A stretch of 64,000 bases of DNA from an uncultured Myxococcales bacterium. GTDB taxonomy: Bacteria; Myxococcota_A; Polyangia; Fen-1088. Of this stretch, positions 2 to 41,671 are shown piece by piece. Location of the stretch: the NCBI GenBank assembly GCA_937889515.1, contig CALAOV010000136.1:1061-65060 (forward strand). Direction: 5' to 3'. A program made the translations under genes and the position numbers. The notes under the pieces were generated by a model that saw only the letters and a list, made by a program, of their open reading frames with translations, ran no database searches and was not told the origin of the DNA. How positions within the stretch are numbered: position 1 is the stretch's first letter; every line of letters starts with the position of its first letter.

Positions 2-1120
2 GACCTGAACGGCGTGGTCTGGTTCCGCAAGACCTTCGACCTTCCGGCCGGCGCCGCGAGCGCCGCAGCGGAGCTGCAGCTGGGCATGGTCGACGACATC
101 GACACCACCTGGGTCAACGGCGTGAAGGTCGGAACCACCGTCGGGTACAACATGGTGCGGAGGTATCCCCTCGGCAGCGGCGTGCTCAAGCCCGGCCGCA
201 ACGTCGTCACCGTGCGCGTGCTCGACACCGGCGGCGGCGGTGGCATCTGGGGCGATCAGAAGCTGCAGGTCGTATTCGGGAAAATCTCACACGATGGCCA
301 GCACGCGGCAGAGCCGGACGCTGGCCAAGCGCCGCAGCCCATCATCCTGTCGGGTCCGTGGCGGTATCGAATCGGGATGAAACTGGAAGACGGTCCGCCG
401 CCGCCGATGGGTGTCACGGGCGATGTGGCCACACCCACCGTCCTTTACAACGGGATGATCGCGCCGCTCCTGCCCTACGCCATTGCCGGCGTGATCTGGT
501 ACCAGGGCGAAGCCAACGTGCATCGCGAGCAGCAGTACCGGACCCTGTTCCCCGCCCTGATCGCCGACTGGCGACAGTCCTGGGGCCAGGACTTCCCGTT
601 CCTGTTCGTTCAGATCGCCCCTCACCACGACATGACGCCCGAGCTGCGCGAGGCCCAGCTCCTGGCCTGGCAGCACACGCCGAAGACGGCGATGGTCGTC
701 ACGATGGATTGCGGCGACGCGACCGACATCCATCCCCCGCACAAACAGCCGGTCGGGGCGCGGTTGTCTCTGGCGGCGCGGGCGCTGGCCTACGGAGAAC
801 ACCTCGAATACTCCGGACCGGTCTTCGACACGATGAAGGTCGCGGGTGGAAAAGGAGCCGGCAAGGCGACGCTGAGTTTCACGCATCTCGGGCGCGGCCT
901 CGTCGCCAAGGGCGGCCCGCTCAAAGGTTTCACGATGGCCGGCGCCGACAAGGTGTTTCATCCCGCCCGGGCGCAGATCCGCGGCCACACGGTGGTGGTG
1001 ACGAGCGAGGCGGTGCCGCAGCCCGTGGCCGTCCGCTACGGCTGGGCCAACGTGCCGAACGGCAATCTTTTCAACAAGGCCGGCCTCCCCGCCCCGCCGT
1101 TCCGGAGCGATCCGAATTGA
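2..1120 (+). CDS. Sialate O-acetylesterase-like SGNH/DUF303 carbohydrate esterase, 5'-truncated at the window edge
   Basis: The ORF runs off the 5' end. It has the motifs VWFRKTFDLP, GVIWYQGEAN and TMDCGDATDIHPPHKQPVG, which are typical of the sialic-acid 9-O-acetylesterase family, and it sits next to glycoside hydrolase genes. Confidence 0.65.
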   Translation, partial: DLNGVVWFRKTFDLPAGAASAAAELQLGMVDDIDTTWVNGVKVGTTVGYNMVRRYPLGSGVLKPGRNVVTVRVLDTGGGGGIWGDQKLQVVFGKISHDGQHAAEPDAGQAPQPIILSGPWRYRIGMKLEDGPPPPMGVTGDVATPTVLYNGMIAPLLPYAIAGVIWYQGEANVHREQQYRTLFPALIADWRQSWGQDFPFLFVQIAPHHDMTPELREAQLLAWQHTPKTAMVVTMDCGDATDIHPPHKQPVGARLSLAARALAYGEHLEYSGPVFDTMKVAGGKGAGKATLSFTHLGRGLVAKGGPLKGFTMAGADKVFHPARAQIRGHTVVVTSEAVPQPVAVRYGWANVPNGNLFNKAGLPAPPFRSDPN

Positions 1121-1177
1121 GCCCGCCCGCGCGGCCCAGAGAAACGACGACGGACACCTTCGGGTTACACTACCGAA

Positions 1178-2209
1178 ATGGCCCGTCTAGCCCTGCTGGC
1201 GATATCTATCGTGACGTTACAGAGCTGCGGTGGCAGTGCACCGGCGCGATCGGTCGCGGACGCTTCGACGCCCGATGGCGCGCAACAGACTCGGGACAGT
1301 GCCGTCGCTGAGCGAGTGCAGCCGCTCTGGCTCGCGGAGAACAGCGGCAGCACCGACTACCTGTTCAGCATCTGGGGAAGCGGTCCCACCGATGTCTACG
1401 TCGCTGACGCGAACTACAACCCACCCCAGTCCGGTGGGATTCTCCACTCCACCGGAGACGGGACTTGGGTCAGGCAGACGAACGGGATTACGGGCCCCGT
1501 GCAGGCTGTTTGGGGAAGCGGCAGCAATGACATCTACGCGTCGAGCGCGGCGATGCTTCACTCGACGGGTGACGGCATCTGGACCCAGCAACCAACCGGT
1601 GTCGTCCAGACCACGTATGCAATCTGGGGCACCGGTCCCGACAACGTCTACATCGTCGGTGGGTATGACAATGTCGGGACCATCCTTCATTCTCCCGGCG
1701 ATGGTTCCTGGACCGTTCAGGCCACCGTCAACGCGAACCTGAACATGATCTGGGGAAGCGGCTCTACGGACATTTATGTCGTCGGGGTTGGCGAGATAGG
1801 CTCGACGTTCACCGGCGATATCTCCCGCAGCCAAGGAAACGGCACCTGGTCCAGTCAGACGCTGAATCCAAACCCTGGCACGAGCAACGTCTGGGGAAGC
1901 AGCAGCAGCGACGTGTACATAACGGGGCCCAGTGGATCGGTTCTCCACTCTGCGGGGGACGGGACATGGACCTCTGAATCGACGGGGCAACCGAACACAA
2001 ATGGCATCTACGCAATCTGGGGCAGTGGTCCGGACGACATCTACATCGGCGGCGATGGCGGTACGATTCTGCATATGACTGGCGGTGGTACGTGGACCAA
2101 AGAGAGCACACCCGGCGCCGATATCGTGATCCAGGCCATGTGGGGCAGCGGCCCCGACGACGTATACGCCGTCGGCAACGGAACGATTCTGCACCGTCGC
2201 ACCAACTAG
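1178..2209 (+). CDS. Secreted lipoprotein with about 8 tandem ~45-aa repeats (IWGSGxxDIYxVG ... ILHSxGDGTWT), beta-propeller-like
   Basis: It has a signal peptide with the lipobox LQSCGG and a clear internal periodicity of W-G-S-G/D-G-TW motifs. No catalytic motif was recognised. Confidence 0.55.
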   Translation: MARLALLAISIVTLQSCGGSAPARSVADASTPDGAQQTRDSAVAERVQPLWLAENSGSTDYLFSIWGSGPTDVYVADANYNPPQSGGILHSTGDGTWVRQTNGITGPVQAVWGSGSNDIYASSAAMLHSTGDGIWTQQPTGVVQTTYAIWGTGPDNVYIVGGYDNVGTILHSPGDGSWTVQATVNANLNMIWGSGSTDIYVVGVGEIGSTFTGDISRSQGNGTWSSQTLNPNPGTSNVWGSSSSDVYITGPSGSVLHSAGDGTWTSESTGQPNTNGIYAIWGSGPDDIYIGGDGGTILHMTGGGTWTKESTPGADIVIQAMWGSGPDDVYAVGNGTILHRRTN

Positions 2210-2236
2210 CGCCCGCCCGCCTCCTTCGACGGCCCG

Positions 2237-3913
2237 CTAGTAGGTTCCAACCACCACGCGAAGGATCTGCGGCTCCGAGGTGAAGTTGAGGCCCCAGTCG
2301 GTCTGGTCGCCGTTCCAGAGGCGGCGGAACTTGAACTTGCCGCTCTCGTAGGTCCCCTCCTCGACGCGCAGGTAGTCGCGCTGCTTCTTCGGCGCGGCGC
2401 CGGTCGTCTGGAAATCGACGCGGCAATGGACGCCGGCCACCAGAAACTGATTGTCGTCGAGTTGGGCGACGAAGGCGCCGCCGACGGGCTCGGCGTTCCC
2501 CGGCGGCTTGTCGCCGAATCCGAACTGCGGGAGGCCGTACGAGACGTTAACCTTCCAGCCGCCGATCTCCAGGCTCTGTGCGGGCGTCCCTTTCTTCTCG
2601 GCGACCCCTTTGACCTTCCCCTCGAAGCCGAGGCGGGCGAGCTCGCGCATCATCGGGCCGACGAGCTGGTAGTTGAGCGCGAACGGCGCCAGCGTCTCCT
2701 CGTTCGTCTTCTTGGCGCCGAGCGGAAAGTTCACGTAGTTCGTGACGTCGATCCCGAAGGGCGAGAACCCGAGCGTCTCGTGGCCGAGCGCGAGGAAGAA
2801 AAAGCGCGCGTACTGCGGCGCGTTCGAGATCTCGGGGATGAGGAGCGGATTGTCCGGCCGCCGGTAGAGCTCCATGACCTTGTCGACCTTGGTGTAGTCG
2901 TCCATGTAGATGTCGGGCGCCAGGAGGTCGAGCGCCGGCGCGGCCGCCTTCCATATGGGCAGCACGTCGTCGGTCGGACCGCCGCTCTCCCAGTTGACGA
3001 CGGGCCCCGGCGAGATCGGATCGCGGAGCGCGGCGTTCGCGTAAAGCGGCAGGGGATACTCGGCCTTGCCGGCGGCCGCCACCTCGCCGACGTAGCGGGC
3101 GACCGCCCACGCGTGGAAGAACTCGTCGGCGTCTTTGCCGAACGCTTCCTTCCAGCCCACATTGCTCACATTGCCCACGTTCCCCACATTGCCAATGTTC
3201 GCGCCGGCCGGCTTTTTCCCCATGGCGGCCAGGATCGGTGCCGGCACCGGAGCGTCGAACGCTTTCACCGCCGCCGGCGAGTAGTCGCGGACGGCCCCCC
3301 AGGTCCCCGATTCGTTCTCCACCTGCACCAGGATCACCGTGTGTTGCGGGTCGGTCTTCTTGAGATGGCGCATCAGCGCGACGAAGGCGCGCTTGTCCGC
3401 TTCGAGCATCTCGCTCGAGAACGGCGAGGCCGAGTCCACCGGGCGCCCGTCTGCGCGAAGCATCCTCACAAGCTTCTTCGGATCCTGCTTCATCCACAGC
3501 GGCATGTAGTGCGGGCTGCCGTTCTTCCAGGTCGCGAACCAGAGCAGGATCAGGTGAACGTCGTTCTTGCAGGATTGCGCGACGAGGGTATCCACCACCG
3601 AATAATCGAACGCTCCGGGTTTGGGCTCGAATTGTTCCCAGTAGACGGGCATCTCGACGGTGTTGGCGTGGATGGCTTTGATCGCCGGCCACACCTGCGG
3701 CAGCACGGCTGGCCAGGCGCTCGAGTTGTTCACCTGCGCGCCCAGGATCAGATACGGCGCGCCGTCGATGAGCAGGGCGTGGCGTCCATCCTTGTGCACC
3801 AGCCGAGGCAACGAATGATCAGTTGCCCACGCGGTCGCAGGGGCAGCAAGCAGGCCAACGAGGCCAATGAGACGGGCGAAACGGGGGAGCGAGCGTATGG
3901 TGGTCTTGCGCAT
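2237..3913 (-). CDS. Clan GH-A (GH35/GH42-like, DUF4978/DUF5597-type) glycoside hydrolase, putative beta-galactosidase
   Basis: It has an N-terminal signal peptide. The motif NTVEMPVYWEQFEPKPGAFDYS resembles the GH35/42 W-E-P region, and VQVENESG is a candidate NE acid/base motif. It also contains a (GNV)n loop repeat. Confidence 0.6.
   Translation of the reverse strand: MRKTTIRSLPRFARLIGLVGLLAAPATAWATDHSLPRLVHKDGRHALLIDGAPYLILGAQVNNSSAWPAVLPQVWPAIKAIHANTVEMPVYWEQFEPKPGAFDYSVVDTLVAQSCKNDVHLILLWFATWKNGSPHYMPLWMKQDPKKLVRMLRADGRPVDSASPFSSEMLEADKRAFVALMRHLKKTDPQHTVILVQVENESGTWGAVRDYSPAAVKAFDAPVPAPILAAMGKKPAGANIGNVGNVGNVSNVGWKEAFGKDADEFFHAWAVARYVGEVAAAGKAEYPLPLYANAALRDPISPGPVVNWESGGPTDDVLPIWKAAAPALDLLAPDIYMDDYTKVDKVMELYRRPDNPLLIPEISNAPQYARFFFLALGHETLGFSPFGIDVTNYVNFPLGAKKTNEETLAPFALNYQLVGPMMRELARLGFEGKVKGVAEKKGTPAQSLEIGGWKVNVSYGLPQFGFGDKPPGNAEPVGGAFVAQLDDNQFLVAGVHCRVDFQTTGAAPKKQRDYLRVEEGTYESGKFKFRRLWNGDQTDWGLNFTSEPQILRVVVGTY
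3158..3202 (-). repeat. 9-bp tandem repeat (CACATTGCC-like, about 5 units) encoding (GNV)n inside the GH35-like gene
   Basis: The DNA reads cacattgct cacattgcc cacgttccc cacattgcc aatgttcgc. It encodes ANIGNVGNVGNVSNVG. Confidence 0.6.
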
Positions 3914-3925
3914 GGATGATGTCTC

Positions 3926-5377
3926 CTACGGACGGCCACCAACGGTGATTTCGGTGATCGCCGGCTTGCCGTTGGCGGCGCGGATCTCGAAGCGAACGTA
4001 ACGCGCCGGCACCGGGCCGAAGGTGGCGACCTTCATCCTTCCGTCGGCCGGCCAGGTTCCGACGCTGGCCTCGCTGAAGGTGTCGCCATCGGCGCTGGTG
4101 GCAATCCGGTACGACGTGACGTTGCCGTCCTTGCTGCTCGCCTCGTGGTGGTAGCGCGGCACGACCCCGAGCCAGCCGACGTCCGGTTGCACCCGCCCGA
4201 GATCGAGTGTGATCGTCTGCGGCAACGCGCCCGTGGGCTGCCACATGCTGATGAAGTCGGTGTCGTTCTTGCCATCGATCGCGGCGTTTGCATCATCGCT
4301 GCTGGCCGTCGCCGACACCGGCGTGTAGGGGCGCTCGTTCTGCGGGGGCTGGGCCGGCAGCGGCGGACGCGCGCCGTTCGGCGTCCAGGCCGCGCCCACG
4401 TCCTGCAGCAGCTTGACGATCGCGGGGGCGAGCTTGCCGTCGCGGTTGGGCGGGCAGTTGAGCAGGAAATTGGTCCACTTCGGTTCCAGGTCTTCGAGGT
4501 GCTTGCTGACCACGTCCGAGACCGTCATCAGGCCGCCGACGTCGGGCGCCCAGAACCAGTCGTTGCCGCCGGTGGCATTCACCTTCTGCTCCTGCTGGGC
4601 CGGGTAGGTGTTGCCGGCCGGCGCCCACCCGCCCCGCGGCTCCTCGAAGTTGACGATGTCCATGTCCCAGGGGTCGGCCAGGTGCGCGTGATCGGTCAAC
4701 AGGCAGTTCGGTTGCAGCGACTTCACCAGGCCGCGGATCTCCTGGTACGCCATGGCGCTATGGCCCATCTGCCAGGACCAGCCGTCGATGATCAGGATCG
4801 GGATCGGACCGTAGTTGGTGAGCAACTCGGTGAGCTGCGTCTTGACGTAGGCCAGCTTGGCGGGCGTGAGGTGTCCGGCGCTGACGTCTTCGGTGGTGTC
4901 CCAGATCGAGTAATAGAGGCCCGGCAGCAGGCCCCGGCTGCGGAAGGCGTCCACGTATTCGCGCACGACGTCCCCCTGGCCGTTGCGCCAGGGGATGTGA
5001 CCGACGTTGAAATCGCTGGCGCGGCTCGGCCACAGCGCGAAGCCGTCGTGGTGGTGGGTGGTGAGCACGCCGTACTTCATCTTGGCGGCGACCGCGGCGT
5101 CGGCCCACTGGCCGGGATCGAGGCCGATCGGATTGAACTGCTTGATGTCCAGGTTCGGCTTCGACCACGAGCCGGTGTAGGTCAGGATCCCGAAGTGGAG
5201 GAACATCCCGAAGCGCAGGTCGACGAAATCGCGCTGAAGCTGTTCGAGCGGTTTGGCCGGCGCGGATTGGCTGTGGGTGCCGGCCGCAGGTGACGGTGGC
5301 TCGCGATGGGCGCAACAGGCCGGCAGCGGCGAGGCCAACACGGTTGCAAGCACCATCAATGGGGCGTGTCGGCTCAT
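3926..5377 (-). CDS. GH29 alpha-L-fucosidase with C-terminal F5/8 type C (discoidin/CBM32-like) domain
   Basis: It has a signal peptide. The core FGMFLHFGILTYTG...HHHDGFALWPS is the GH29 signature. The C-terminal SYRIATSADG...YVRFEIRA is a discoidin-like domain. Confidence 0.8.
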   Translation of the reverse strand: MSRHAPLMVLATVLASPLPACCAHREPPSPAAGTHSQSAPAKPLEQLQRDFVDLRFGMFLHFGILTYTGSWSKPNLDIKQFNPIGLDPGQWADAAVAAKMKYGVLTTHHHDGFALWPSRASDFNVGHIPWRNGQGDVVREYVDAFRSRGLLPGLYYSIWDTTEDVSAGHLTPAKLAYVKTQLTELLTNYGPIPILIIDGWSWQMGHSAMAYQEIRGLVKSLQPNCLLTDHAHLADPWDMDIVNFEEPRGGWAPAGNTYPAQQEQKVNATGGNDWFWAPDVGGLMTVSDVVSKHLEDLEPKWTNFLLNCPPNRDGKLAPAIVKLLQDVGAAWTPNGARPPLPAQPPQNERPYTPVSATASSDDANAAIDGKNDTDFISMWQPTGALPQTITLDLGRVQPDVGWLGVVPRYHHEASSKDGNVTSYRIATSADGDTFSEASVGTWPADGRMKVATFGPVPARYVRFEIRAANGKPAITEITVGGRP

Positions 5378-5492
5378 TCGCGCGACAGTGTACCCTCGCC
5401 TCGCCGCGGCGCGCGCGCGGAATATATGGAAGTTGCGCTAGCCACGCTCACCCCGTCGTGGAAATATCGCGGCCCTTCGAGGAGGTCCGTCC

Positions 5493-8363
5493 ATGCGAAT
5501 CGTGAAAGTCCTCATGCTGCTCGTCGCTGGCGTCGCACACGCGGGTCCGCGCGGTCCGGGCCACCCAGCTCCAGCGGGCGCGAAAGCAGACGTCCAGCGG
5601 GTGCCGGACGGCCTTCTCGTTCACCTCGGCGACGGCTTCCTCAAGCTCGAGGTCTGCGCGAGCGACGTCGTGCGCGTCGCGTACGCCAAGGACAAGACCT
5701 TCTTTGCCCGCAAGAGCCTGGCGACGTCGCCGAAGCGATGCGACGGCGCGAAGTGGGATCTCACCCAGGATGGCAAGACCGCGACGCTCGCCACGTCTAA
5801 GCTCCGCGTCCGCGTCGATCTCGGCACGGGCCGGGTCGCGTTCCTCGATTCGACCGGAACCGCAGTTCTCGAAGAAAAGGAGGGCGGCCGGACGATCATG
5901 CCGGCGATCGTCCAGGGAGAAAACACGCAGCACGTGCGACAGGAATGGATCCCGCACACCGACGAGGCACTCTACGGTCTGGGCGAAAACCAGCTCGGCC
6001 TCCTCAACCTGAAGGGCTACGACCTCGACCTCTGGCAGCACAACGGCACCCTGGTCGTTCCGTTCCTGGTGTCGAGCCGCGGCTGGGGCATCCTGTGGGA
6101 CAACACCTCGTTCACGCGATTCGGAGATCTGCGCGAGCTCGCGCCCATCCCCGCCGACCGCCTCTTCGACGCGCGCGGCAAGCGCGGCGGCCTCACCGGG
6201 TCGTACTACGGCGGCGCCGATTTCAAGCACCTGGTCGGCGAACGCGTCGACCGGGTCGTCGACATCGCGCTGTCCAGCAAGGAGCGAAAGCCCAACCAGC
6301 TCATCTATGCCGGCCTGCCCGAGGGCCCCGCCAGCGTGCGCTGGGCGGGAGAGGTCGAGGCCGAAGTGACGGGCGACTACACGTTCCAGACCTTCTCGAA
6401 CAGCGGCATCAAGGTCTGGATCGACGATCGGCTGGTCATCAACCACTGGCGCCAGGGCTGGTTGCCGTGGAAGGACGTAGCCAGGGTGCACCTCGAGGGC
6501 AAGCGCCGTCATAAGATCCGGCTCGAGTGGAGCAAGGATCAGAACATGGAGACGGTGCAGCTCCTCTGGAAGCCGCCGGCTCCGTCGACGACCCCCGCCG
6601 CGACCTCGCTCTGGTCGGAGGTCGGCGACGGCATCGACTACACCTTCGTTTACGGTCCGGAGATCGACAACGTCGTCGCCGGCTACCGGCGCGTCACCGG
6701 TCAGGCGCCGATGATTCCGCGCTGGGCGCTGGGCCTGTGGCAGAGCCGGCAGCGTTACGAGACCTCGAAAGCGAGCCTCGACGCCGTCGACGGCTTCCGC
6801 GCGCGCGGGATCCCCTTCGACAACATCGTCCAGGACTGGTTCTACTGGAAGGAAGACAGCTGGGGCTCGCACGAGTTCGACCCGGTCCGCTTTCCCGATC
6901 CGGACAAGTGGGTCCGCGACATCCACGCCCGGCATGCGCGCGTCATGATCTCGGTGTGGGGCAAGTTCTACCCGGGCACCAAGAACTTCGAGGAGATGCG
7001 CACGCACGGGTTCCTCTACCAGCGCAACTTGAGTGAAGGGCTGCGCGACTGGGTCGGCGACGGTGGCTACCCGTACACGTTTTACGACGCCTTCAATCCC
7101 GAGGCGGGGAAGCTGTTCTGGTCGCAGATGGAACGGACGCTGTTTCGCAAGCACGTCGATGCCTGGTGGCTGGACGCGCCGGAGCCGGACCTGCTGCCCA
7201 CGCCCACGCTCGACGGGCAGCGCACCCACATGAACCCGACGGCGCTCGGCTCCGGGCCACGCATGCTCAACGCCTACTCGCTCGTGAACAGCAAGACGAT
7301 CTACGAGGGGCAGCGCTCGGCGGCGCCGGACCAGCGCGTCTTCATCCTGACCCGCTCGGCTTTCGCGGGTAACCAGCACTACGGGGCGGCGGTCTGGTCG
7401 GGGGACATCACCTCGACCTGGACGGCGCTGCGCGCGCAGATCCCGGCGGGGCTCGGCCTGTCGGTCTCGGGGATCCCGTACTGGAGCATGGACATCGGCG
7501 GATTCGCAGTCCCGGCGCGCTTCGCGGCCGAGCACCCGACGCAGGAGGACGCCGAGGAGTGGCGCGAGCTGAACGTCCGCTGGTTCCAGTTCGGGACGTT
7601 CGTTCCGCTCCTGCGCGTGCACGGCGAGGCGCCCAAGCGCGAGATGTGGGAGCTGGGCGGCGAATTCCACGCGGCCTACAAGACCGAGCTGAAGTTCGAC
7701 CAGATCCGCTATCGCCTGCTGCCCTACGTCTACTCGCTGGCGGGCGCCGTCACGCACGACGGCAGCACGATCATGCGGCCGCTGGTCATGGACTTCCGCG
7801 GCGACGCCAAGGCGCGCGACGTGAGCGACGAGTACATGTTCGGGCCGGCGTTCCTGGTCAGCCCGGTCACCGCCTTCAAGGCGCGCAGCCGGAGCGTCTA
7901 TCTGCCGCACGCGACCGGCTGGTACGACTTCTGGAGCGGCGCCAGCGTGGCCGCGGGCAAGACGATCGACGTGCCCGCGCCTTATGACTCGATGCCCGTT
8001 CACGTCAAGGCCGGGGCGATCGTTCCGACCGGCCCCGAGATCGCCTACACCGACGAGAAACCCGCCGACCCGATCACGCTGTGGGTCTACACGGGCGCCG
8101 ACGGCGAGTTCACTTTGTATGAGGACGACGGTCTGACCTACGGCTACGAGAAGGGCGCGTCCGCGCGCATCCCCATCCGCTGGAACGACGCCACGAAGAC
8201 GCTCACCATCGGCAAGCGCGAGGGCGCGTTCCCGGGCATGCAGAAGGAGCGGACGTTCGACGTGGTGGTCGTGTCGAAGGGCAAGCCGGTCGGCTTCTCG
8301 TTTACGCCCAAGGCCGACAAGACGGTTCGGTACGCGGGGGCGGCGGTCGAGGTGAAGTTGTAG
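5493..8363 (+). CDS. GH31 alpha-xylosidase/alpha-glucosidase with inserted PA14 domain
   Basis: It has the signal peptide MRIVKVLMLLVAGVAHA. The PA14-like segment is GDYTFQTFSNSGIKVWIDDRLV. The GH31 catalytic regions WSGDITSTW and IVQDWFYWKED are present. At 956 aa it is typical of Xyl31A/YicI-like enzymes. Confidence 0.85.
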   Translation: MRIVKVLMLLVAGVAHAGPRGPGHPAPAGAKADVQRVPDGLLVHLGDGFLKLEVCASDVVRVAYAKDKTFFARKSLATSPKRCDGAKWDLTQDGKTATLATSKLRVRVDLGTGRVAFLDSTGTAVLEEKEGGRTIMPAIVQGENTQHVRQEWIPHTDEALYGLGENQLGLLNLKGYDLDLWQHNGTLVVPFLVSSRGWGILWDNTSFTRFGDLRELAPIPADRLFDARGKRGGLTGSYYGGADFKHLVGERVDRVVDIALSSKERKPNQLIYAGLPEGPASVRWAGEVEAEVTGDYTFQTFSNSGIKVWIDDRLVINHWRQGWLPWKDVARVHLEGKRRHKIRLEWSKDQNMETVQLLWKPPAPSTTPAATSLWSEVGDGIDYTFVYGPEIDNVVAGYRRVTGQAPMIPRWALGLWQSRQRYETSKASLDAVDGFRARGIPFDNIVQDWFYWKEDSWGSHEFDPVRFPDPDKWVRDIHARHARVMISVWGKFYPGTKNFEEMRTHGFLYQRNLSEGLRDWVGDGGYPYTFYDAFNPEAGKLFWSQMERTLFRKHVDAWWLDAPEPDLLPTPTLDGQRTHMNPTALGSGPRMLNAYSLVNSKTIYEGQRSAAPDQRVFILTRSAFAGNQHYGAAVWSGDITSTWTALRAQIPAGLGLSVSGIPYWSMDIGGFAVPARFAAEHPTQEDAEEWRELNVRWFQFGTFVPLLRVHGEAPKREMWELGGEFHAAYKTELKFDQIRYRLLPYVYSLAGAVTHDGSTIMRPLVMDFRGDAKARDVSDEYMFGPAFLVSPVTAFKARSRSVYLPHATGWYDFWSGASVAAGKTIDVPAPYDSMPVHVKAGAIVPTGPEIAYTDEKPADPITLWVYTGADGEFTLYEDDGLTYGYEKGASARIPIRWNDATKTLTIGKREGAFPGMQKERTFDVVVVSKGKPVGFSFTPKADKTVRYAGAAVEVKL

Positions 8364-10073: not shown

Positions 10074-10691
10074 TCACTTGGTCGGCGGCGACTTGTTCAG
10101 GTTCGCGTCCTGAAACTCCTTCGCGTTGTTGCGGCTCGGGTAGGGCTGGGCGGGGACGGGCACGCCGAGGTGGGCGCACAGCGGTTCCCAACCGTCCCCC
10201 AGGTTGTGAACGAGCAGTCGCTCCGGCGGAACGGTCGCCCGCACGGCTTTCACGTTCTCCTCGTACAGCGCAATCGCATGATCGCGATCGGCCAGTCGGC
10301 CCCCGAAAACCTTGTCGCGAATCAGCGCGATTCCGAGCGACTCCGGCTCCACGCTCGTCTGGATACCCGCCACGATCGTCTTCTCGAAGCTCTGCCACCA
10401 GCTCTCGGCCGTCCGGTAGGTCAGCACGACCTTCGCGTCCGGATAGAACTCGACCAGCTCCCTCCAGTAGTACGCGGACGGCCAGTCGACGCAGGAGCCA
10501 TACCCGGCGAACAAGGCCTCCCAACCGAGCGGGGCGCCTTGCACGAATGCGCGCCACAGACGCTTCTGCTCCTCGTTCGCGATCACCTCGTACATATGGT
10601 GACACGGCCCAAATCCGAGGAGGTTGAGGGCCTCGCGCAGCGAGTCCGTGCCCGTTCGGCCAAACCCCGTCCCGATCACCCTGAGCGTCAT
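10074..10691 (-). CDS. Sulfotransferase-family protein
   Basis: IGTGFGRTGTDSL is a PAPS 5'-phosphosulfate-binding-loop-like motif. The size is about 205 aa. Confidence 0.55.
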   Translation of the reverse strand: MTLRVIGTGFGRTGTDSLREALNLLGFGPCHHMYEVIANEEQKRLWRAFVQGAPLGWEALFAGYGSCVDWPSAYYWRELVEFYPDAKVVLTYRTAESWWQSFEKTIVAGIQTSVEPESLGIALIRDKVFGGRLADRDHAIALYEENVKAVRATVPPERLLVHNLGDGWEPLCAHLGVPVPAQPYPSRNNAKEFQDANLNKSPPTK

Positions 10692-10880: not shown

Positions 10881-11909
10881 ATGACGCTTTCCAAGCACGC
10901 CTTTGCGCTGGTCGTCTTCTGTTCTCTTCCCACCTGGGCGGCCACGCCGGAGCGGCCGGGGGTCGGTGGGATCGAGACGATCGCTGAGCTGCCCGGATGG
11001 TGGCACGCTGGATCCAACCCTGCCGGTTACCTGGTGGACCTCGATCGCGCCGTCAGGCACCGTGGTCGGGCGAGCGCCCGTTTGAAGTCGAATGGCGACA
11101 GCCCGACAGGCTTTGGTTCGCTCATGCAGGTCTCGAGCGCCGATGAATATAGAGGCAAGAGGGTGCGCATGAGCGCCTGGGTCAAGTCCGACAAGGTCGT
11201 CAGCCATTCCGGCCTGTGGATGCGCGTGGACGGCCCGAGCGGTGACGCCACCAAGCCGCTCGCCTCCGACGCCATGCAAGACCGCGGCATCGTGGGGACG
11301 CGCGACTGGCAGAAATACGAAATCGTCCTCGATGTCCCGACCGAATCCGTGGACATCGCCTTCGGAGCCCATCTCTCCGGCAATGGGACGCTCTGGATCG
11401 ACGACGTGCAGTTCGAAGGCGTCGACGATCGCGTTCCGGTGACCAGACCCAACCCTGCGGCCCCGCCGCCGCGCGCGAGCAACCTCGACTTCGAGAACGC
11501 TCGAGCGGCGCCCGAGGACGCGATGCGGGAAATCCAGCGCTCTCACATCGAGGCGCACGTACCACCGCCGGTCGACTTCAATGGGATGCTGACCCGCGAT
11601 CTCAGCAGCTACTTCGCGGTCGCGCGGGCGCAGAAGGCGCCGACGATCGACTTCGAGTTGCTCCGGAACGGCCCCACCCAGGTCGGCGTGTCGTATCCCA
11701 AGTTCTACGTCTGGGTGCGCATCGCGGGTGGGATGTCCGCCGACGATCGGGGCGCCGCTCGAGTTGCGGCGGTCGATCGGAAACGGTTTGAGGTCACCGA
11801 CTTCGTTTCGGAGCGCACTATTCGTGGTGACCGAGATGGCATCCGCCGCATCTTCCCGGCGTCGGTGTGCGAGAGGATTCAGGCGAAGCTCGGGAAGGGA
11901 GCGCAATGA
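10881..11909 (+). CDS. Secreted hypothetical protein (jelly-roll-like N-terminal domain)
   Basis: It has the signal peptide MTLSKHAFALVVFCSLPTWAA. No family was recognised. Confidence 0.45.
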   Translation: MTLSKHAFALVVFCSLPTWAATPERPGVGGIETIAELPGWWHAGSNPAGYLVDLDRAVRHRGRASARLKSNGDSPTGFGSLMQVSSADEYRGKRVRMSAWVKSDKVVSHSGLWMRVDGPSGDATKPLASDAMQDRGIVGTRDWQKYEIVLDVPTESVDIAFGAHLSGNGTLWIDDVQFEGVDDRVPVTRPNPAAPPPRASNLDFENARAAPEDAMREIQRSHIEAHVPPPVDFNGMLTRDLSSYFAVARAQKAPTIDFELLRNGPTQVGVSYPKFYVWVRIAGGMSADDRGAARVAAVDRKRFEVTDFVSERTIRGDRDGIRRIFPASVCERIQAKLGKGAQ

Positions 11910-12654: not shown

Positions 12655-13413
12655 ATGAAGGCGCCGCGCGTCCAGCTCATGGCGACCTGTCTCGCCGATG
12701 CGTTCTTCGACGACGTGGCGCGGGCGACCGTCGAGGTGCTGGAGCATCTCGGGTGCGAGGTGAGCTTTCCCGAAGACCAGACCTGCTGTAGCCAGCCGGC
12801 GTTCAACAGCGGGGATTGGCCGGCCGCCCGCCAGGTCGCGCGGCACTGCCTGCGGGTGTTCAACGACGCCGCGCCGGTGGTGGTTCCCTCGGGCTCCTGC
12901 GCGCGCATGGTGTCGCACGGCGCCCTGGTGCTCTTCGAAGGAGAGCCCGAGGTCGATCGAACCCAGGCAGCCGAGCTGGCGCAGCGCACCTGGGAGCTGG
13001 GCGATTTCGTGGTGCGCGGCCTCGGCGTGGTGCGGTGGCCGGGGCGCCTCGGCATGCGCCTGGCGTTTCATCGCTCGTGTCACTCGCGCGGAACGGCCTA
13101 CGCCGAGGGGGCGCTGACGCTGCTGCGGTCCATCGACGGGGTCGAGGTGGTCGAGATCGGTGAGGGCGAGCAGTGCTGCGGTTTCGGGGGAACGTTCTCC
13201 GTCGGTTTTCCGCAGATCTCGCGCGGCATGGGCACGCTCAAGATCGATCATGTGCTGGCGACGGCACCCGACGCGCTGGTCTCGGCCGACTCGAGCTGCC
13301 TCATGCACATCTCCGGCTTGGCCGACCGAACGGGGCGGCCGCTGCGAGCTCTCCACCTGGCGCAGGTGCTGCGCGACGCTCTGCGCGCGGCGAGCCCCGA
13401 GGTCCGCGCGTGA
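12655..13413 (+). CDS. lutA: L-lactate utilisation protein LutA, (Fe-S)-binding CCG-domain protein
   Basis: Cysteine motifs CLADAFF...CCSQP and CCGFGG are present. The gene is followed by lutB and lutC. Confidence 0.85.
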   Translation: MKAPRVQLMATCLADAFFDDVARATVEVLEHLGCEVSFPEDQTCCSQPAFNSGDWPAARQVARHCLRVFNDAAPVVVPSGSCARMVSHGALVLFEGEPEVDRTQAAELAQRTWELGDFVVRGLGVVRWPGRLGMRLAFHRSCHSRGTAYAEGALTLLRSIDGVEVVEIGEGEQCCGFGGTFSVGFPQISRGMGTLKIDHVLATAPDALVSADSSCLMHISGLADRTGRPLRALHLAQVLRDALRAASPEVRA

Positions 13414-14834
13414 GCCGTCATCAGGAACCCTTCGACAGCTTCGCCGCCGCCCAGAGCGAGTCGCGCCGAACCGCCGTGCGCCTCGGGAGCAAGGCCGGAC
13501 ACGAGAAGCGCACCGAGGTGTTGAACCGCGACTACCCGGGGTCGCCCTCTCGGGTCGACTCGTTGCGCCGCCTGGCCGGCGAGATCAAGCAGCACACCCT
13601 CGATCACCTGGACCTGTACCTCGAGCGCGCCCAGGCCCGCCTGGAGGCGAACGGCGCCAAGGTGCACTTCGCGGCCGACGCCGACGAGGCCTGCCGCACC
13701 GTGCTCGGCATCCTGCAGAGCCGCGGCGCCAAGCGGGTGGTCAAGACCAAGAGCATGGCCACCGAGGAGATCGAGCTGGGCGCGTTCCTCGAGCGCGAGG
13801 GCATCGAGTCGCTGGAGACCGATCTGGGCGAGTTCATCGTGCAGCTCGACGCCGATAAGCCCAGCCACATCGTCAAGCCGATCATGCACAAGGACCGGCG
13901 CGAGGTGGCGCGCACCTTCGAGGGGCACGGCCTCGGCGCCTACGACGACACGCCCGAGGTCATCACGCGGCGCGCGCGCGAGCACCTGCGGCGCAAGTAC
14001 CTGGAGGCGGACGTCGGCATCACGGGCGCGAACTTCATCTCGGCCGAGAGCGGCCGGCTGGTGCTGGTCACCAACGAGGGAAACTCCCGCTTCTGCCTGG
14101 CCGCCACCCGCTGTCACATCGCGCTCGTCGGGATCGAGAAGCTGGTGCCGCGCGATCGGGATCTCGGCGTGCTCCTGAATCTCCTGGCCCGCTCGGCCAC
14201 CGGGCAGGCGCTGTCGGTCTACACCGAATTCATCACCGGGCCGCGCGCCGCCTCGCAGCCCGACGGCCCCGACGAGATGCACGTCATCTTCGTCGACAAC
14301 GGCCGCAGCGAGATCCTGGCCGGCGACTGCCGCGAGATCCTGCGCTGCATTCGCTGCGGCGCCTGTCTCAACGTCTGCCCGGTTTACCGGCAGTCGAGCG
14401 GCCACGCCTACCGCGGCGTCTACTCCGGTCCGGTGGGCGCGGTGCTGACGCCGCTGCTGGCCGGCGAGGGGTTCAACCACTTCGCCGATCTGCCGCGCGC
14501 GTCCAGCCTCTGCGGTGCCTGCAACGAGGTCTGCCCGGTCGACATCCCCATCCCCGATCTCCTGCTGCGCCTGCGCGATCGCGGCAAGCGCGCCGGGGCC
14601 AAACCGGCCGCCGCCGCGCCGTCCATGAAGACGTTCGCCCGCCTGGCCTCGCGGTCCGCGACCTGGCGGCGCGCCTTGCGGGCCGGGCGGCTGCTCGGCT
14701 TGCTTCCCGGACCGTTGCGGCCGCGCGCGCTGCGCGTCTGGAGCGAAAACCACGTCCTGCCGCCCTGGCGCGGGGGAGCGTTCCGGGAGTGGTTTGCCAA
14801 GCGGAATCGCCCTCCCGTGGACGGAGCGGTCTGA
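13410..14834 (+). CDS. lutB: Lactate utilisation protein LutB (4Fe-4S ferredoxin-type iron-sulfur protein)
   Basis: CIRCGACLNVCPVY and CGACNEVCPV are ferredoxin motifs. A GTG start overlaps the lutA stop. The 13173 start in the ORF track is an out-of-context extension. Confidence 0.85.
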   Translation: MSRHQEPFDSFAAAQSESRRTAVRLGSKAGHEKRTEVLNRDYPGSPSRVDSLRRLAGEIKQHTLDHLDLYLERAQARLEANGAKVHFAADADEACRTVLGILQSRGAKRVVKTKSMATEEIELGAFLEREGIESLETDLGEFIVQLDADKPSHIVKPIMHKDRREVARTFEGHGLGAYDDTPEVITRRAREHLRRKYLEADVGITGANFISAESGRLVLVTNEGNSRFCLAATRCHIALVGIEKLVPRDRDLGVLLNLLARSATGQALSVYTEFITGPRAASQPDGPDEMHVIFVDNGRSEILAGDCREILRCIRCGACLNVCPVYRQSSGHAYRGVYSGPVGAVLTPLLAGEGFNHFADLPRASSLCGACNEVCPVDIPIPDLLLRLRDRGKRAGAKPAAAAPSMKTFARLASRSATWRRALRAGRLLGLLPGPLRPRALRVWSENHVLPPWRGGAFREWFAKRNRPPVDGAV

Positions 14835-14837
14835 TCG

Positions 14838-15458
14838 ATGGGCGACGCGCGCCAGCTGATCCTCGACCGCGTGAAGGCCGCGCTGGCGATCCTTCCCGAA
14901 AAAAAGCCGCTGCCCGAGTATCCGGCCGACGTCGCGCTGTCGCTCGGCGCCCCCGCCCCGGGCGATGCGGTGGCCGGCTTCCGCGAGCAACTGGAATCCG
15001 TTCGCGGCCGATCCTTCACCGACCCGGCTGCGCTGGGAGCTTGGCTCGCCGAGCAAGGGGCGACCCGGGGCTACTGCGATCCCGCGCTCGCCGGTTGGCT
15101 CGGAACGGCGCTGGGCGGTGACCTCGCCCTCGAGACCACGCTCGACCGCGATCGCATCGACGACTATCAATTCGGTATCACGCGCGCCTGGGGGGCGGTG
15201 GCCGAAACGGGGTCGCTGATTCTCGACGACGCCACCACGTCGCGCCGGCTAGGCGCGCTGGCGCCTTGGATCCACATCGCGGTCGTGGCCCCCGAGCGCA
15301 TCTTGCCCGACGTGGGGAGCGCCATCGCGGCGCTGGGGGACGATCCGAACGTGATCTTCTGCACAGGCCCGTCGAAGACCGCCGACGTGGAAGGGATCCT
15401 CATCGAAGGCGTACACGGCCCTGGCGAGCAGGTCGCCCTGATATACTCTCGAGCTTGA
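14838..15458 (+). CDS. lutC: Lactate utilisation protein LutC (LUD domain)
   Basis: It sits after lutB in the conserved lutABC order. The size and sequence fit the LUD domain. Confidence 0.8.
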   Translation: MGDARQLILDRVKAALAILPEKKPLPEYPADVALSLGAPAPGDAVAGFREQLESVRGRSFTDPAALGAWLAEQGATRGYCDPALAGWLGTALGGDLALETTLDRDRIDDYQFGITRAWGAVAETGSLILDDATTSRRLGALAPWIHIAVVAPERILPDVGSAIAALGDDPNVIFCTGPSKTADVEGILIEGVHGPGEQVALIYSRA

Positions 15459-22950: not shown

Positions 22951-24107
22951 GTCCGGTTCTCACGCCACCAGCGCTTCAGGAGCGGCCAGCGAAAGCCGTA
23001 TAGGCCGCCAGAGAGAGAGAGGTAATGGTCGCGCCGAAGATCGACGCATGTCGCTTTGACGTCCTCGTCAGTCCACTGGTCATTGCTGTGGCGTACGAGG
23101 TTTGTAAGTGTCTCGAGAGTGATGCCCCCGTCCGCACGGGCTATGGCATCTAGTACTGCCAGAGCCCGGGCTACCTCGGGAGCGTCATAGTGAGTCGAGA
23201 TGCGTTCAACGTAGTAGCCAAAGTTGGCGACGTCGTCATCGTCGGAGAGAAGCTTCGTAACCACGGCCTCGACGTCGGCGGCCATGGGTGCTCGTCCGAG
23301 GAGGCTAAGCTGGTCCACAAAGTGATGTACGTGGTACGGGTATCCTCCTGTAGCGTCGACGATCAACGCCGCCACGGCGGGTATATCAGGGGGTGGAGAA
23401 GGGAGGTGTCCAAGTGCCCTGGTGGCGACCTCTTCCGCTTCGGTTCGAATCATGGGCGGGACGGTTTCGAGCTGCATGTCGTTAATAGGTGCGTTTGAGT
23501 TGCCGGACTTTCTAAGGCCGCGCAGCACGAGATGGAGGCCAATGGACCCGTTGAGCAGAAACCGCAGTCGCGCGCCGTGCATCTGCCGGAGGTGTCTCAG
23601 GAGGTCCAGAAGCTCGATCGCTGTGTTAGGACCCTCTCGTTGGACGATGTTGTAAAGCATCAACGGAAATTCGTCCCAGATGAAGATCACCTTGTGATCG
23701 GGTTCCACTGCATCAAGGACATCCTCGATCGCCCCTGAGAGTAGGGCTTTCCATTTCGAAAAGGCTTGCGGGAGTTCGAGATTGCCGAGCTTTGTTGGCA
23801 GAAAGCCGTCCCAGACTTCGATGGCGCGTGCTTTGGCCCGCGCGGCCCGGGGTAGGTGGTCCCGAACCGTGCGATAGACGGATCGGACGAGCTCGAGGAC
23901 GCCATGAATGGCCTCGAGTTCTTGGAAGAAGGTGACCGCTCCGGTACGACCCTCCTCGTGCATTTTTAGGACGATGTGGGTTTTCCCGATTCGGCGCTCA
24001 GCTCCCAGAACGAGGCTCTGGCGCTCAAGGATCGTCCAGTAGCGGGCTACCTCGGCCGTGCGGCCGACAATTTCGTCGATGCTGAGATGGCCACCCGGAT
24101 TAATCAT
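22947..24107 (-). CDS. AAA+/Arch_ATPase-like P-loop NTPase, paralogous in its ATPase core to 20023-22950
   Basis: IVGRTAEVARYW precedes the Walker A motif LGAERRIGKTHI. The Walker B motif is VIFIWDEFP. It overlaps the downstream NTPase-TPR gene by 4 bp, and its GC is low. Confidence 0.7.
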   Translation of the reverse strand: MINPGGHLSIDEIVGRTAEVARYWTILERQSLVLGAERRIGKTHIVLKMHEEGRTGAVTFFQELEAIHGVLELVRSVYRTVRDHLPRAARAKARAIEVWDGFLPTKLGNLELPQAFSKWKALLSGAIEDVLDAVEPDHKVIFIWDEFPLMLYNIVQREGPNTAIELLDLLRHLRQMHGARLRFLLNGSIGLHLVLRGLRKSGNSNAPINDMQLETVPPMIRTEAEEVATRALGHLPSPPPDIPAVAALIVDATGGYPYHVHHFVDQLSLLGRAPMAADVEAVVTKLLSDDDDVANFGYYVERISTHYDAPEVARALAVLDAIARADGGITLETLTNLVRHSNDQWTDEDVKATCVDLRRDHYLSLSGGLYGFRWPLLKRWWRENRT

Positions 24108-24238: not shown

Positions 24239-25027
24239 CTACCCCCGCCGCGTCTTCCTTCCGTACCCCAACTCCGCCCCCCCCGACAGCACGTGATCGA
24301 CCCCCGTCGTGAACGTCGCCTCCGCCGCCAAATACAGACACAGCCGCCCCGCCTCCTCGATCGTCCCCATCCGCCCGAGCAACTGCGCCGCCTCGCCCGA
24401 CGCGCGCGTCGCGGCCGGGTCGTCGGACGCGTCGATCGCTTCCTGCCAGAGCGGCGTGTACACATTCCCCGGCGAAACGGCGTTCACGCGGACCTCGTAC
24501 TCGGCCTCGTCGACCGCCAGCGCCTTGGTCAGTGCCGTGATCGCGCCCTTCGTCGCGACGTACGTCGTCGCGTGGAGCTGGCCGATGGCGCCGACGAGGC
24601 TGGACATGTTGATGATGTTGCCCTTCACCTTGCGCAGGTGGGGCAGGGCGAACTTGCAGGCGGCGAAGATGCTCACCAGGTTCAGGTCCAGCAGGTGGCG
24701 GAAGTCCTGCACGGAGAAGTCGTCGATCGGCTTGTGGTCCGGGTGCCAGCCGGCGTTGTTGATGAGGCAGTCGAGCCGCCCGAACTTTCCGACCGTCTCG
24801 TCGATCAGCGTGCGGACGTCGTCGACCTTGCTGACGTCGCACTGGACAAAGTGGGCGCGCCCGGGCCCGTGCGTGTTGAGGTGCGCCGCGACGGCCTGGC
24901 CGTCCTCGGCGTTGCGCGCGCAGAAGACGACGTCGGAGCCGCCCTCCTCGACGAAGGCGCGCACGCACCCGAAGCCGATCCCTTTGCTGCCGCCGGTGAC
25001 GACGACGACCTTGTCTTTGTAACGCAT
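24239..25027 (-). CDS. SDR-family oxidoreductase (candidate L-fucose 1-dehydrogenase)
   Basis: The Rossmann motif TGGSKGIGFG is present. The catalytic residues are S..Y..K (SSLVG...YVATK). It is the last gene of the sugar ABC transporter operon. Confidence 0.75.
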   Translation of the reverse strand: MRYKDKVVVVTGGSKGIGFGCVRAFVEEGGSDVVFCARNAEDGQAVAAHLNTHGPGRAHFVQCDVSKVDDVRTLIDETVGKFGRLDCLINNAGWHPDHKPIDDFSVQDFRHLLDLNLVSIFAACKFALPHLRKVKGNIINMSSLVGAIGQLHATTYVATKGAITALTKALAVDEAEYEVRVNAVSPGNVYTPLWQEAIDASDDPAATRASGEAAQLLGRMGTIEEAGRLCLYLAAEATFTTGVDHVLSGGAELGYGRKTRRG

Positions 25028-25275
25028 GGGTTCAGCCCCTCACCTGGGCAGCCGGAGCGATGGGTGGACACTCTGCAGACCTGTCGTAGAAAGAAAGCAT
25101 GGCAAAATATGCAGGCGTCGCGCTTTACGTGCTTGTGCTGGTAGCGGTCGTCGTCGGCGTGGACGTCGCGTTCTTCCGGAACCGGTTCTGGGAGCGGCTG
25201 ATGGTGAACGTTGGAATCGTCCTGGTGTTCGGGGCGTTCTACTTGAGGTTCCTGAAGCCTCCCGGCTGAGCGCGG

Positions 25276-28822: not shown

Positions 28823-28897
28823 CGAGGCGGATAATAGGAGGTCCGCGAATTTCTGGACATGCCGATTTTCTCGGCGGCGTGCTAGAGAGGATCGGCT

Positions 28898-41666: not shown

Positions 41667-41671
41667 CGCCG

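Follow-up and report, generated by a model that had tools for sequence, protein, structure and literature searches.

Xyloglucan is a major hemicellulose entering soil, and the way in which bacteria break it down has been elucidated in Bacteroidota, in Cellvibrio, in Xanthomonas and in a few Gram-positive or thermophilic bacteria. Myxococcota are abundant in soil and peat and are usually discussed as predators or as cellulose degraders. Considered here is a stretch of 64,000 nucleotides from an uncultured member of this phylum (the window: positions 1,061 to 65,060 of contig CALAOV010000136.1, assembly GCA_937889515.1), and in particular a set of side-chain enzyme genes at positions 2-8363, which very likely form the debranching half of a xyloglucan utilisation system in an uncultured soil bacterium of the Polyangia, operating by the mechanism set out further below. 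The known toolkit of CE20, GH35, PA14-bearing GH31 and GH74 enzymes is extended with it to Myxococcota.

The closest described counterpart of the window's enzyme set appears from sequence comparison to be the Xanthomonas citri xyloglucan locus XAC1768-1774 (Vieira et al., 2021; PMC8245568), with the Cellvibrio japonicus cluster next. X. citri is likewise a Gram-negative, soil- or plant-associated host, and the two loci have GH74, CE20, GH35 and GH31 families in common, their enzymes being secreted or periplasmic, in the window by prediction; the window proteins match the solved Xanthomonas enzymes with E values of 2e-69 (CE20), 1e-184 (GH35), 8e-254 (GH31) and about 1e-150 to 1e-160 (GH74). 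Characterised Gram-negative xyloglucan loci employ GH95 for alpha-1,2-linked fucose (PMC8245568), and X. citri does so too, whereas the window carries a GH29 enzyme with a CBM32 domain; where X. citri has TonB-dependent transporters, the window has two predicted porins, lipoproteins resembling carbohydrate-binding modules (CBMs) and a cytochrome c lipoprotein. The combination of TonB-dependent transporters and GH95 that marks a xyloglucan utilisation locus (XyGUL) of the Xanthomonas type is not found in the window, which is further set apart by two tandem GH74 genes, by sub-clusters split along the contig, by an L-fuconate pathway nearby and by its Myxococcota host. The C. japonicus cluster (Xyl31A, Bgl35A, Afc95A and a TonB-dependent transporter; Larsbrink et al., 2014; PMC4285296) resembles the window in clustering a PA14-bearing GH31 (2XVG, 4e-231) with a DUF5597-type GH35 (4D1I, 6e-168) and in having endo-xyloglucanase genes that do not adjoin those of the exo-enzymes. 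It differs in its GH95 and TonB-dependent transporter, in place of which the window has GH29 and a porin module, and in having no acetylesterase.

Two more distant systems are also instructive. The Thermotoga maritima locus (TmCel74, the GH29 protein TM_0306, FucI, TmAxy31 and TmBgalB; PMC12144081) shares with the window the company of GH74, GH29, GH31 and a beta-galactosidase, the proximity of fucose catabolism and the absence of a beta-glucosidase, and its GH29 enzyme has been assigned to xyloglucan fucose by context only, as in the window. It differs in having a canonical GH29A enzyme, cytoplasmic exo-enzymes, a GH42 galactosidase and an isomerase route for fucose, and in lacking an esterase. 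The Bacteroides ovatus XyGUL (SusC/D, a surface glycan-binding protein (SGBP), GH5, GH9, GH31, GH2, GH43 and GH3; Larsbrink et al., 2014) resembles the window in its general plan of a surface endo-xyloglucanase lipoprotein, glycan-binding lipoproteins, an outer-membrane importer and periplasmic exo-glycosidases, these locations being predictions for the window, and among PDB entries the window GH31 matches BoGH31A best (1.5e-261). The differences are that GH74 stands for GH5 and GH35 for GH2, and that import is predicted to run through a passive pair of porins; the adjacent SusC/SusD-like pair of a Bacteroidota polysaccharide utilisation locus is missing, and no SusC or SusD Pfam match occurs anywhere in the window. 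The literature searched, including a 2026 review of bacterial glycoside transporters, holds no description of a myxobacterial or Polyangia xyloglucan locus or of porin-mediated uptake of xyloglucan oligosaccharides, which is not proof of novelty. As enzymes the proteins are ordinary; what is new is the uptake module and the apparent use of GH29 in place of GH95.

A protein with 100% identity to the GH29 of the window is encoded on a soil-metagenome contig of 66,384 bp (ENA ERZ923665, k127_754741; the parent contig, L001), where the public gene call starts 7 codons further in than the 483-aa form, and the named homologues of the GH29 and other window proteins come from metagenome-assembled genomes labelled 'Polyangia bacterium', 'Polyangiaceae' or 'Sorangium sp.'. 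The GC content is about 65-72% throughout, an island at 20-24 kb excepted, and because spurious frames crowd the mechanical lists of open reading frames (ORFs) in such GC-rich DNA, genes were chosen by third-position GC content and domain matches. Statements that a family is absent from the window cover the ORFs scanned with Pfam. Positions 2-8363 hold five genes according to Pfam and PDB sequence searches, with assignments as follows.

2-1120, plus strand: putative CE20-type (SASA-fold) esterase, C-terminal 372 of 666 aa (Pfam SASA 6.5e-10 with galactose-binding-like matches; PDB).
1178-2209, plus strand: 343-aa lipoprotein with lipobox LQSC and seven repeats of about 40 aa, 'ILHSxGDGxWT...WGSGxxDVYxVG' (N-terminus, repeat analysis).
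2237-3913, minus strand: putative GH35 beta-galactosidase of the CjBgl35A/XacGH35 type, with C-terminal DUF5597 and signal peptide (Pfam DUF5597 2.9e-35, GH35 2.5e-6).
3926-5377, minus strand: putative GH29 alpha-L-fucosidase with C-terminal F5/8 type C (CBM32) domain (Pfam Alpha_L_fucos 1.9e-36, residues 45-331; F5_F8_type_C 9e-15).
5378-5492: divergent intergenic region of 115 nt between the GH29 and GH31 genes (sequence and upstream-region comparison).
5493-8363, plus strand: putative GH31 alpha-xylosidase with PA14 inserted in the N-terminal beta-sandwich, and signal peptide (Pfam, PDB).

The preliminary description had read this stretch as a contiguous set of enzymes for the acetyl, galactose, fucose and xylose decorations of xyloglucan, and all four enzyme families were found by Pfam and PDB comparison, with assignments that favour xyloglucan rather than unrelated specificities. 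What had been called an SGNH acetylesterase is indeed an esterase, more precisely one of CE20 type, although only its C-terminal part lies in the window. Over query residues 1-370 this part matches 9EGA (1e-76), XacXaeA (7KMM, 2e-69) and 9H4U (2e-68); it takes in the beta-sandwich insertion together with the Asp/His end of the catalytic domain, with a 'DATDIHPPH' stretch, while the signal peptide and a candidate catalytic-serine block, GGQSNM, are found off the window on the parent contig, where the full-length protein measures 666 aa against 636-644 aa in the solved enzymes. The secretion signals ascribed to all four enzymes are accordingly present within the window for GH35, GH29 and GH31 only. 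Similarity across the SASA-fold domain with its inserted beta-sandwich places the esterase in CE20, a family founded on a xyloglucan acetylesterase, XacXaeA (PMC8245568). The beta-galactosidase candidate, earlier described as GH35/42-like, falls to GH35 with DUF5597; its PDB matches are 8FA4 (6e-185), the X. citri GH35 7KMN (1.3e-184, residues 32-558), 3U7V and CjBgl35A (4D1I), and similarity over the full length, DUF5597 included, assigns it to the CjBgl35A/XacGH35 subgroup. The PA14-bearing GH31 was correctly recognised as of alpha-xylosidase type: Pfam finds the TIM barrel (1.2e-92), PA14 (2e-16), N and C domains and DUF5110, in the order Gal_mutarotas_2 (50-210), PA14 (232-365), GH31 (406-749) and C-terminal domains, and full-length PDB alignments were obtained with BoGH31A (5JOU, residues 47-955 against 46-954), the X. 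citri enzyme (7KMP, 8e-254) and CjXyl31A (2XVG). It shares both the PA14 insertion and end-to-end alignment with characterised xyloglucan alpha-xylosidases, and is by these signs an enzyme of the CjXyl31A/BoGH31A type. The specificities of the CE20, GH35 and GH31 proteins are strongly supported through their orthology to characterised enzymes.

The fourth enzyme, a GH29 protein with a discoidin domain as described earlier and as recovered by Pfam, begins with a signal peptide and a possible lipobox, LPAC, and its gene is separated by 12 nt from that for GH35 on the same strand. Membership of GH29 is indicated by the catalytic domain with its conserved nucleophile: in the alignments the Asp of 'IIDGWSW' falls on the nucleophile position of BiAfcB, D172, which is Asp in 3MO4 and replaced by Ala in the variant 3UET. 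Its neighbours recur in related loci. Thirteen loci have a GH29 with at least 70% identity to the window protein, and in nine of them PA14-GH31 lies within 10 kb of GH29; GH35-DUF5597 is found in six (L001, L004, L084, L085, L087 and the P0019 context), a CE20/SASA esterase in six (L001, L004, L084, L087 and the P0019 and P0084 contexts), and GH74 in four (L084, L085, L087 and L002, in the last directly beside GH29). The compact loci L084 and L087 hold GH29, GH35, GH31, CE20 and GH74 together, L087 also carrying fucose isomerase, AraC, major facilitator superfamily (MFS) and galactokinase genes, and GH95 was found in no related GH29 locus examined. Given this recurrence of GH31, GH35, CE20 and GH74 near GH29 orthologues, the clustering of the side-chain enzyme genes is not due to chance.

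The second part of the system lies farther along the window, in an operon that starts at 35876, in which the gaps between genes after the first are -4 to 73 nt, and which ends in the pair of GH74 genes reported earlier.

35876-36388, plus strand: c-type-cytochrome-like lipoprotein of 170 aa, lipobox LGC, single haem motif CASCH (Pfam Cytochrom_C 2.4e-7).
36650-38194, plus strand: u1, secreted 514-aa protein with Pro-rich N-terminal region and predicted 18-strand outer-membrane barrel (AlphaFold2).
38194-39750, plus strand: u2, 518-aa paralogue of u1 (26% identity), a second predicted porin-like barrel (BLASTP 5e-27 over 489 aa).
39758-40669, plus strand: u3, 303-aa lipoprotein, predicted CBM11/CBM30/CBM4-like beta-sandwich (structure prediction).
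40743-41666, plus strand: u4, 307-aa lipoprotein with Gly-rich linker, fast-evolving (N-terminus; orthologues about 40% identical).
41672-42382, plus strand: u5, 236-aa lipoprotein ending '...NIYIDDIAAEKQ', with a 4-nt overlap with the GH74a start (orthologues 62-76% identical).
42379-44733, plus strand: GH74a, putative xyloglucanase, probable lipoprotein (PDB 6P2M 2e-162, Xgh74A 2CN2 2e-155, X. citri 7KN8 2e-149, CjGH74 5FKR).
44755-47073, plus strand: GH74b, putative xyloglucanase, probable lipoprotein, 51% identical to GH74a (PDB 6P2M 7e-178, 2CN2 2e-171, 7KN8 1e-159).

Both GH74 proteins, which are of BNR/sortilin type, match at least eight solved GH74 enzymes over about 700 residues (1e-149 to 1e-178) and can be assigned by this similarity to the GH74 xyloglucanases; 'ARTDVGG' and 'GD[IL]xGF', which we take to be the catalytic-Asp motifs of the family, are kept in both. 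The module upstream of the pair matches no Pfam family, the cytochrome excepted: u1 to u4 have neither a Pfam match at E <=10 nor an NCBIfam match, ten distant relatives of u1 have no Pfam match at E <=0.1, and u5 has none at E <=0.01. The AlphaFold2 model of u1, from an alignment of 40 sequences, shows about 18 long strands (pLDDT 70, strands 80-93; pTM 0.70), and the family consensus ends in '...GGYxTF', as in outer-membrane barrels. On this predicted 18-strand fold u1 and u2 resemble LamB (maltoporin) and ScrY (sucrose porin), and their mode of uptake would be like that through LamB- or ChiP-style porins. They are not sequence members of those families, having no detectable sequence similarity to them, only 10-13% identity in structural alignments and no Pfam LamB or porin match; they also differ in always being tandem paralogues, in their Pro-rich N-terminal extension and in the company of lipoproteins and a cytochrome. 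The predicted fold makes u3 a candidate surface glycan-binding protein, and because hhalign shows no relationship of the u3 family to u4 or u5, the latter are not claimed as CBMs. A minus-strand ORF at 41653-42348 had been considered as the gene upstream of GH74a; comparison with L090 and L089 exposed it as spurious and revealed u5 on the plus strand. In the cytochrome the residue that may act as sixth ligand, the Met of THMPK in L088, is replaced by Leu in the window and in L090.

The u1 family has 318 members and the u3 family 128 among 5.8 billion clusters, with 438 representatives of u1 at 50% identity among 1.84 billion, and wherever a member of either family bears an organism name, it is from Polyangia. 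When metagenomes were scanned with the u1 alignment, 80 further loci came to light, from which the following counts use non-redundant loci with enough flanking DNA. Downstream of u1 come u2 (45/45 loci), u3 (35/35), u5 (28/29) and GH74 (20/23), u4 being detectable in 14 of 29, and upstream are found the cytochrome (54/59, its orthologues being 66-71% identical and in the same position) and PA14-GH31 that is at least 60% identical (14/26). Across these loci u1, u2, u5 and the cytochrome are 54-91% identical and u3 and u4 mostly 30-50%, a rapid evolution that would fit surface-exposed binding proteins. The gene order of the window recurs in four loci identified by their u3 homologues (40-45% identity), with the module preceded by a divergent sodium:solute symporter (SSF) gene or by GH44 and PA14-GH31. 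The near-invariant order of the module points to uptake of xyloglucan oligosaccharides that is porin-based and not TonB-dependent.

In the window the two parts are separated by about 28 kb, from the end of GH31 (8363) to the cytochrome gene (35876), a stretch that contains lactate and fucose genes, a sulfotransferase gene and a low-GC island with an AAA and tetratricopeptide repeat (TPR) protein. Elsewhere they are joined. In L160, whose u1 is 88% identical, GH35 (minus strand), GH31 (plus strand), the cytochrome, u1 to u5 and two GH74 genes are contiguous, and in L117 and L152 GH35 or CE20 adjoins the module. Since exo-enzymes and GH74 share one locus in L160, L084 and L087, the two separated pieces of the window can be taken as one system. 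Contigs bearing u1 or u3 homologues are also equal in length to contigs bearing GH29 homologues (1,556,392 and 76,813 bp (u1 only), 53,066 bp (u3 only), 32,825, 23,222 and 19,494 bp), and these matching sizes suggest, though they do not prove, that the homologues share contigs.

Fucose and lactate genes occupy part of the interval, and a symporter gene precedes the GH74 operon.

12655-15458, plus strand: LutABC-type L-lactate utilisation genes (Pfam CCG, LUD_dom, Fer4, LutB_C).
24239-25027, minus strand: short-chain dehydrogenase/reductase (SDR) (Pfam adh_short).
25276-28840 (end approximate), minus strand: sugar ABC transporter, with permease 25276-26412, ATPase 26307-27851 and periplasmic binding protein 27836-~28840 (Pfam BPD_transp_2, ABC_tran, Peripla_BP_4).
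28898-30070, plus strand: DUF6786 protein (Pfam 1.5e-142).
30067-30939, plus strand: putative amidohydrolase_2 lactonase (Pfam).
~30945-31700, plus strand: SDR (Pfam adh_short).
~31700-33055, plus strand: putative L-fuconate dehydratase (1YEY/2HXT 7e-159; ENOSF1 4A35 2e-166).
32944-33852, plus strand: FAH-family hydrolase (Pfam FAA_hydrolase).
34078-35798, minus strand: sodium:solute symporter, divergent from the GH74 operon (Pfam SSF 2.4e-53).

The fucose catabolic operon of the preliminary description is thus upheld, and it is of the L-fuconate type. A non-phosphorylative L-fucose pathway was reportedly described in Xanthomonas campestris by Yew et al. in 2006, comprising FucD, XCC4069, and its neighbours. 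The dehydratase gene of the window, of the enolase superfamily, matches 1YEY, the X. campestris L-fuconate dehydratase, and the likeness extends to an amidohydrolase_2 lactonase, two SDRs and an FAH-family hydrolase in one operon, so that 28898-33852 can be assigned by similarity to this pathway; the window differs in adding the ABC transporter, the DUF6786 protein and LutABC nearby. The DUF6786 gene opens the fucose operon, divergent from the ABC transporter, and its product may perform an unassigned step of the pathway, for example as a mutarotase or dehydrogenase substitute. LutABC, some 4 kb from the GH31 gene and in the same position relative to GH31 and GH29 genes in the P0019 context, would be linked with fucose catabolism, its presence fitting L-lactate as the end product of the L-fuconate pathway encoded about 10 kb further on.

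The mechanism proposed for the whole is as follows. The two lipoprotein GH74 endo-xyloglucanases (42379-47073) would cut xyloglucan at the cell surface, where CBM-like lipoproteins (u3, for which alone a fold has been predicted, and perhaps u4 and u5) would hold the polymer or its fragments. Oligosaccharides would then cross the outer membrane through the paralogous LamB/ScrY-like porins u1 and u2, whose fold is predicted and whose substrate is suggested by their near-invariant synteny with GH74 and GH31. In the periplasm the exo-enzymes would act in sequence: the CE20 esterase may first take O-acetyl groups off galactose, GH29-CBM32 would next remove alpha-1,2-linked fucose, GH35 would remove beta-1,2-linked galactose, and PA14-GH31 would finally release alpha-1,6-linked xylose from the non-reducing-end glucose, in alternation with a beta-glucosidase that must be encoded elsewhere. 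Fucose would enter through the ABC transporter and pass down the L-fuconate pathway (24239-33852) to pyruvate and L-lactate, the lactate presumably being oxidised by LutABC (12655-15458), and the SSF symporter may import another monosaccharide. It is possible, and put forward here only tentatively, that Polyangia have in this an undescribed type of polysaccharide utilisation locus, in which GH74 products are caught by novel CBM-like lipoproteins and imported without TonB through a heteromeric maltoporin-like pair from a family outside Pfam, together with a dedicated cytochrome lipoprotein and a GH29 clade outside subfamilies A and B that replaces GH95. Porin-based import would be an alternative to TonB-dependent or SusCD-type glycan import, and it and the cytochrome within a glycan-uptake operon are testable leads.

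Several observations weigh against the xyloglucan reading, and they are taken here with the explanations that they favour. The first concern the fucosidase, for which an alpha-1,2 activity on xyloglucan is fairly probable on the evidence of its gene neighbourhood. The best PDB matches are GH29B enzymes (3MO4 at 1.5e-33, 5K9H and 3EYP), which cover only residues ~46-229, in the N-terminal half of the catalytic domain, and GH29B enzymes are alpha-1,3/4-fucosidases that usually leave alpha-1,2 linkages uncut (PMC10154630). The xyloglucan partners are gone around GH29 relatives at <=64% identity and are missing in four of the 13 loci at >=70% (L006 and L008 at 70%, L003 and L086 at 73%), and in L160 the GH35 and GH31 genes adjoin with no GH29 between them. 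The enzyme could on these grounds be an alpha-1,3/4-fucosidase acting on epitopes of plant N-glycan or Lewis-a type, or one for the fucose of arabinogalactan proteins, placed beside xyloglucan genes only through a general clustering of plant-glycan functions, with GH95 encoded elsewhere or absent. We regard this as unlikely, although it is the strongest of the alternatives. An initial filing of the protein under GH29B, after its top PDB matches, was dropped when the GH29B acid/base motif proved to be missing in the alignment. A multiple alignment finds that motif, 'RWVGNE', in distant relatives (Luteibacter, Dyella and Clostridia loci); the clade that includes the window protein (Polyangia, Streptomyces, Amycolatopsis, Paenibacillus) lacks it and carries a conserved '[FY]E', as in 'NFEEP'. 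Among the five PDB matches aligned residue by residue, 6GN6 (1.9e-28) alone runs through the acid/base region, and this is the GH29A enzyme ALfuk1 of Paenibacillus thiaminolyticus. Soil GH29A enzymes of the ALfuk1 clade free 78-100% of the fucose in Arabidopsis xyloglucan oligosaccharides (PMC4723247). Similarity to the GH29A enzymes TmFuc and BT2970 reaches only 1e-11 to 1e-13. Since the protein appears to stand outside both the canonical GH29A and the canonical GH29B motifs, it is the neighbourhood and not the sequence that would assign it to alpha-1,2 linkages. The neighbourhood argues against the alpha-1,3/4 alternative in several ways: no N-glycan enzymes (GH18, GH20, GH92 or GH2 mannosidase) were seen near GH29, which in the window lies in tight, same-strand linkage with GH35 and in relatives stands beside GH74 or with fucose isomerase, GH74, GH31 and GH35, and no related locus has a GH95 that could take the role. 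Homologues in Streptomyces (~45% identity) lie near L-fuconate dehydratase and lactonase genes, which supports a fucosidase and is silent on its substrate. The clade may be a second solution for the removal of fucose from xyloglucan, and the assignment of the locus to xyloglucan is supported by the nearest relatives of the CE20, GH35 and GH31 proteins, by the GH74 pair and by the fucose pathway, with the GH29 as its weak point.

A broader alternative is that the locus is part of a general plant-cell-wall or hemicellulose island of carbohydrate-active enzymes (CAZymes), in which the four enzymes act on pectic side chains, arabinogalactan, galactomannan or the like and no xyloglucan pathway exists. 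Related loci do hold GH5, GH43, GH62, GH127, GH39, GH30 and GH44, as well as GH11 and CE4, so the neighbourhood may be a broader hemicellulose island, and the window itself has ~34 kb of DNA, with unrelated genes, separating its exo-enzyme genes from GH74. This is nevertheless improbable, since PA14-GH31 and GH74 are xyloglucan-specific families whose closest relatives here are characterised enzymes of xyloglucan loci, since CE20 was founded on a xyloglucan acetylesterase, since the order of GH31, cytochrome, porins and GH74 is kept across ~80 loci, and since GH5, GH44 and GH43 have xyloglucan-active members in known loci too. It is hardly to be expected, finally, that u1, u2 and the cytochrome form a porin-cytochrome electron conduit (for instance for an oxidative polysaccharide-cleaving enzyme), or a device for exporting or anchoring the GH74 lipoproteins, and not an import channel: the module opens with the CXXCH lipoprotein in 54/59 loci, and this protein has no place in the import model, but it has a single haem motif, the loci examined revealed neither a lytic polysaccharide monooxygenase (LPMO) nor another redox CAZyme, and periplasmic exo-glycosidases would need imported oligosaccharides.

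Other difficulties for the xyloglucan reading are more general. No GH1 or GH3 beta-glucosidase, GH95 or TonB-dependent receptor was found among the window ORFs, and TonB receptor and GH95 Pfam matches are lacking in related loci as well; because of the missing beta-glucosidase the earlier statement that the window covers every linkage of the polymer was an overstatement. The models of u1 and u3 are of moderate confidence only (pLDDT 70), from alignments of limited diversity. The SSF gene lies in two frames, as judged by tblastn with the L090 orthologue (87% identity over residues 1-457 in frame -3, 71% over 472-572 in frame -2), and is either a frameshift pseudogene or the product of an assembly indel near 34392-34434.

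The 343-aa lipoprotein encoded between the esterase and GH35 genes, which the preliminary description passed over, is probably a beta-propeller, its repeats containing the Asp-box-like motif 'HSxGDGxW' and 'WGSGxxD[VI]Y'. Searches of Pfam, NCBIfam and PDB returned no match, comparison with GH74b gave no significant similarity, and in related loci the gene is missing, its slot being filled by a toxin-antitoxin pair or a LysR regulator; for want of a database match and of counterparts in these loci it is treated as a passenger.

The 3' part of the divergent GH29/GH31 intergenic region, 'CGTGGAAATATCGCGGCCCTTCGAGGAGG', is kept upstream of GH31 in L084 and L002. About 45 nt before the GH31 start, 'TCGTGGAAATATCGCGGCCCTTCGAGGAGG', are near-identical at window positions 5440-5492, L084 9885-9940 and L002 17650-17706, and the GH31 proteins of the loci that share this leader are ~80% identical (a value measured for L002 only). 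Upstream of u1, 'CTTGAGACTTGAACCTTCCC...TTCGCGCGGCTGG' is conserved between the window and L090. It is possible that these stretches before GH31 and u1 are leader or regulatory elements. A k-mer comparison of upstream regions across loci found only this orthologous leader conservation, upstream of GH31 and of u1, and no motif common to the exo-enzyme, GH74 and fucose promoters, and scans of the GH29/GH31 intergenic region for promoters, terminators and repeats remained at chance level, with no significant promoter or operator call.

Other features of the window touch the xyloglucan genes less closely, and Rfam and tRNA scans found no RNA genes in it. The low-GC island at 20023-24107 (minus strand; 56-57% GC against ~67%) encodes a 975-aa AAA_16 and TPR protein (STAND-like) and an overlapping 386-aa protein that has no family match; PADLOC gave only marginal matches for the island, which was possibly acquired horizontally. 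The gene at 49498-56142 (minus strand) adjoins that for an AraC-family regulator (56039-56974) and encodes a predicted lipoprotein of 2214 aa, in which Big_1 and invasin Ig-like repeats are combined with a C-type lectin domain; the protein resembles an adhesin, and nothing evident ties it to the xyloglucan genes. Between the exo-enzyme genes and LutABC are found a secreted 342-aa protein that has no family match (10881-11909, plus strand) and a Sulfotransfer_4 family protein (10074-10691, minus strand; 7e-59).

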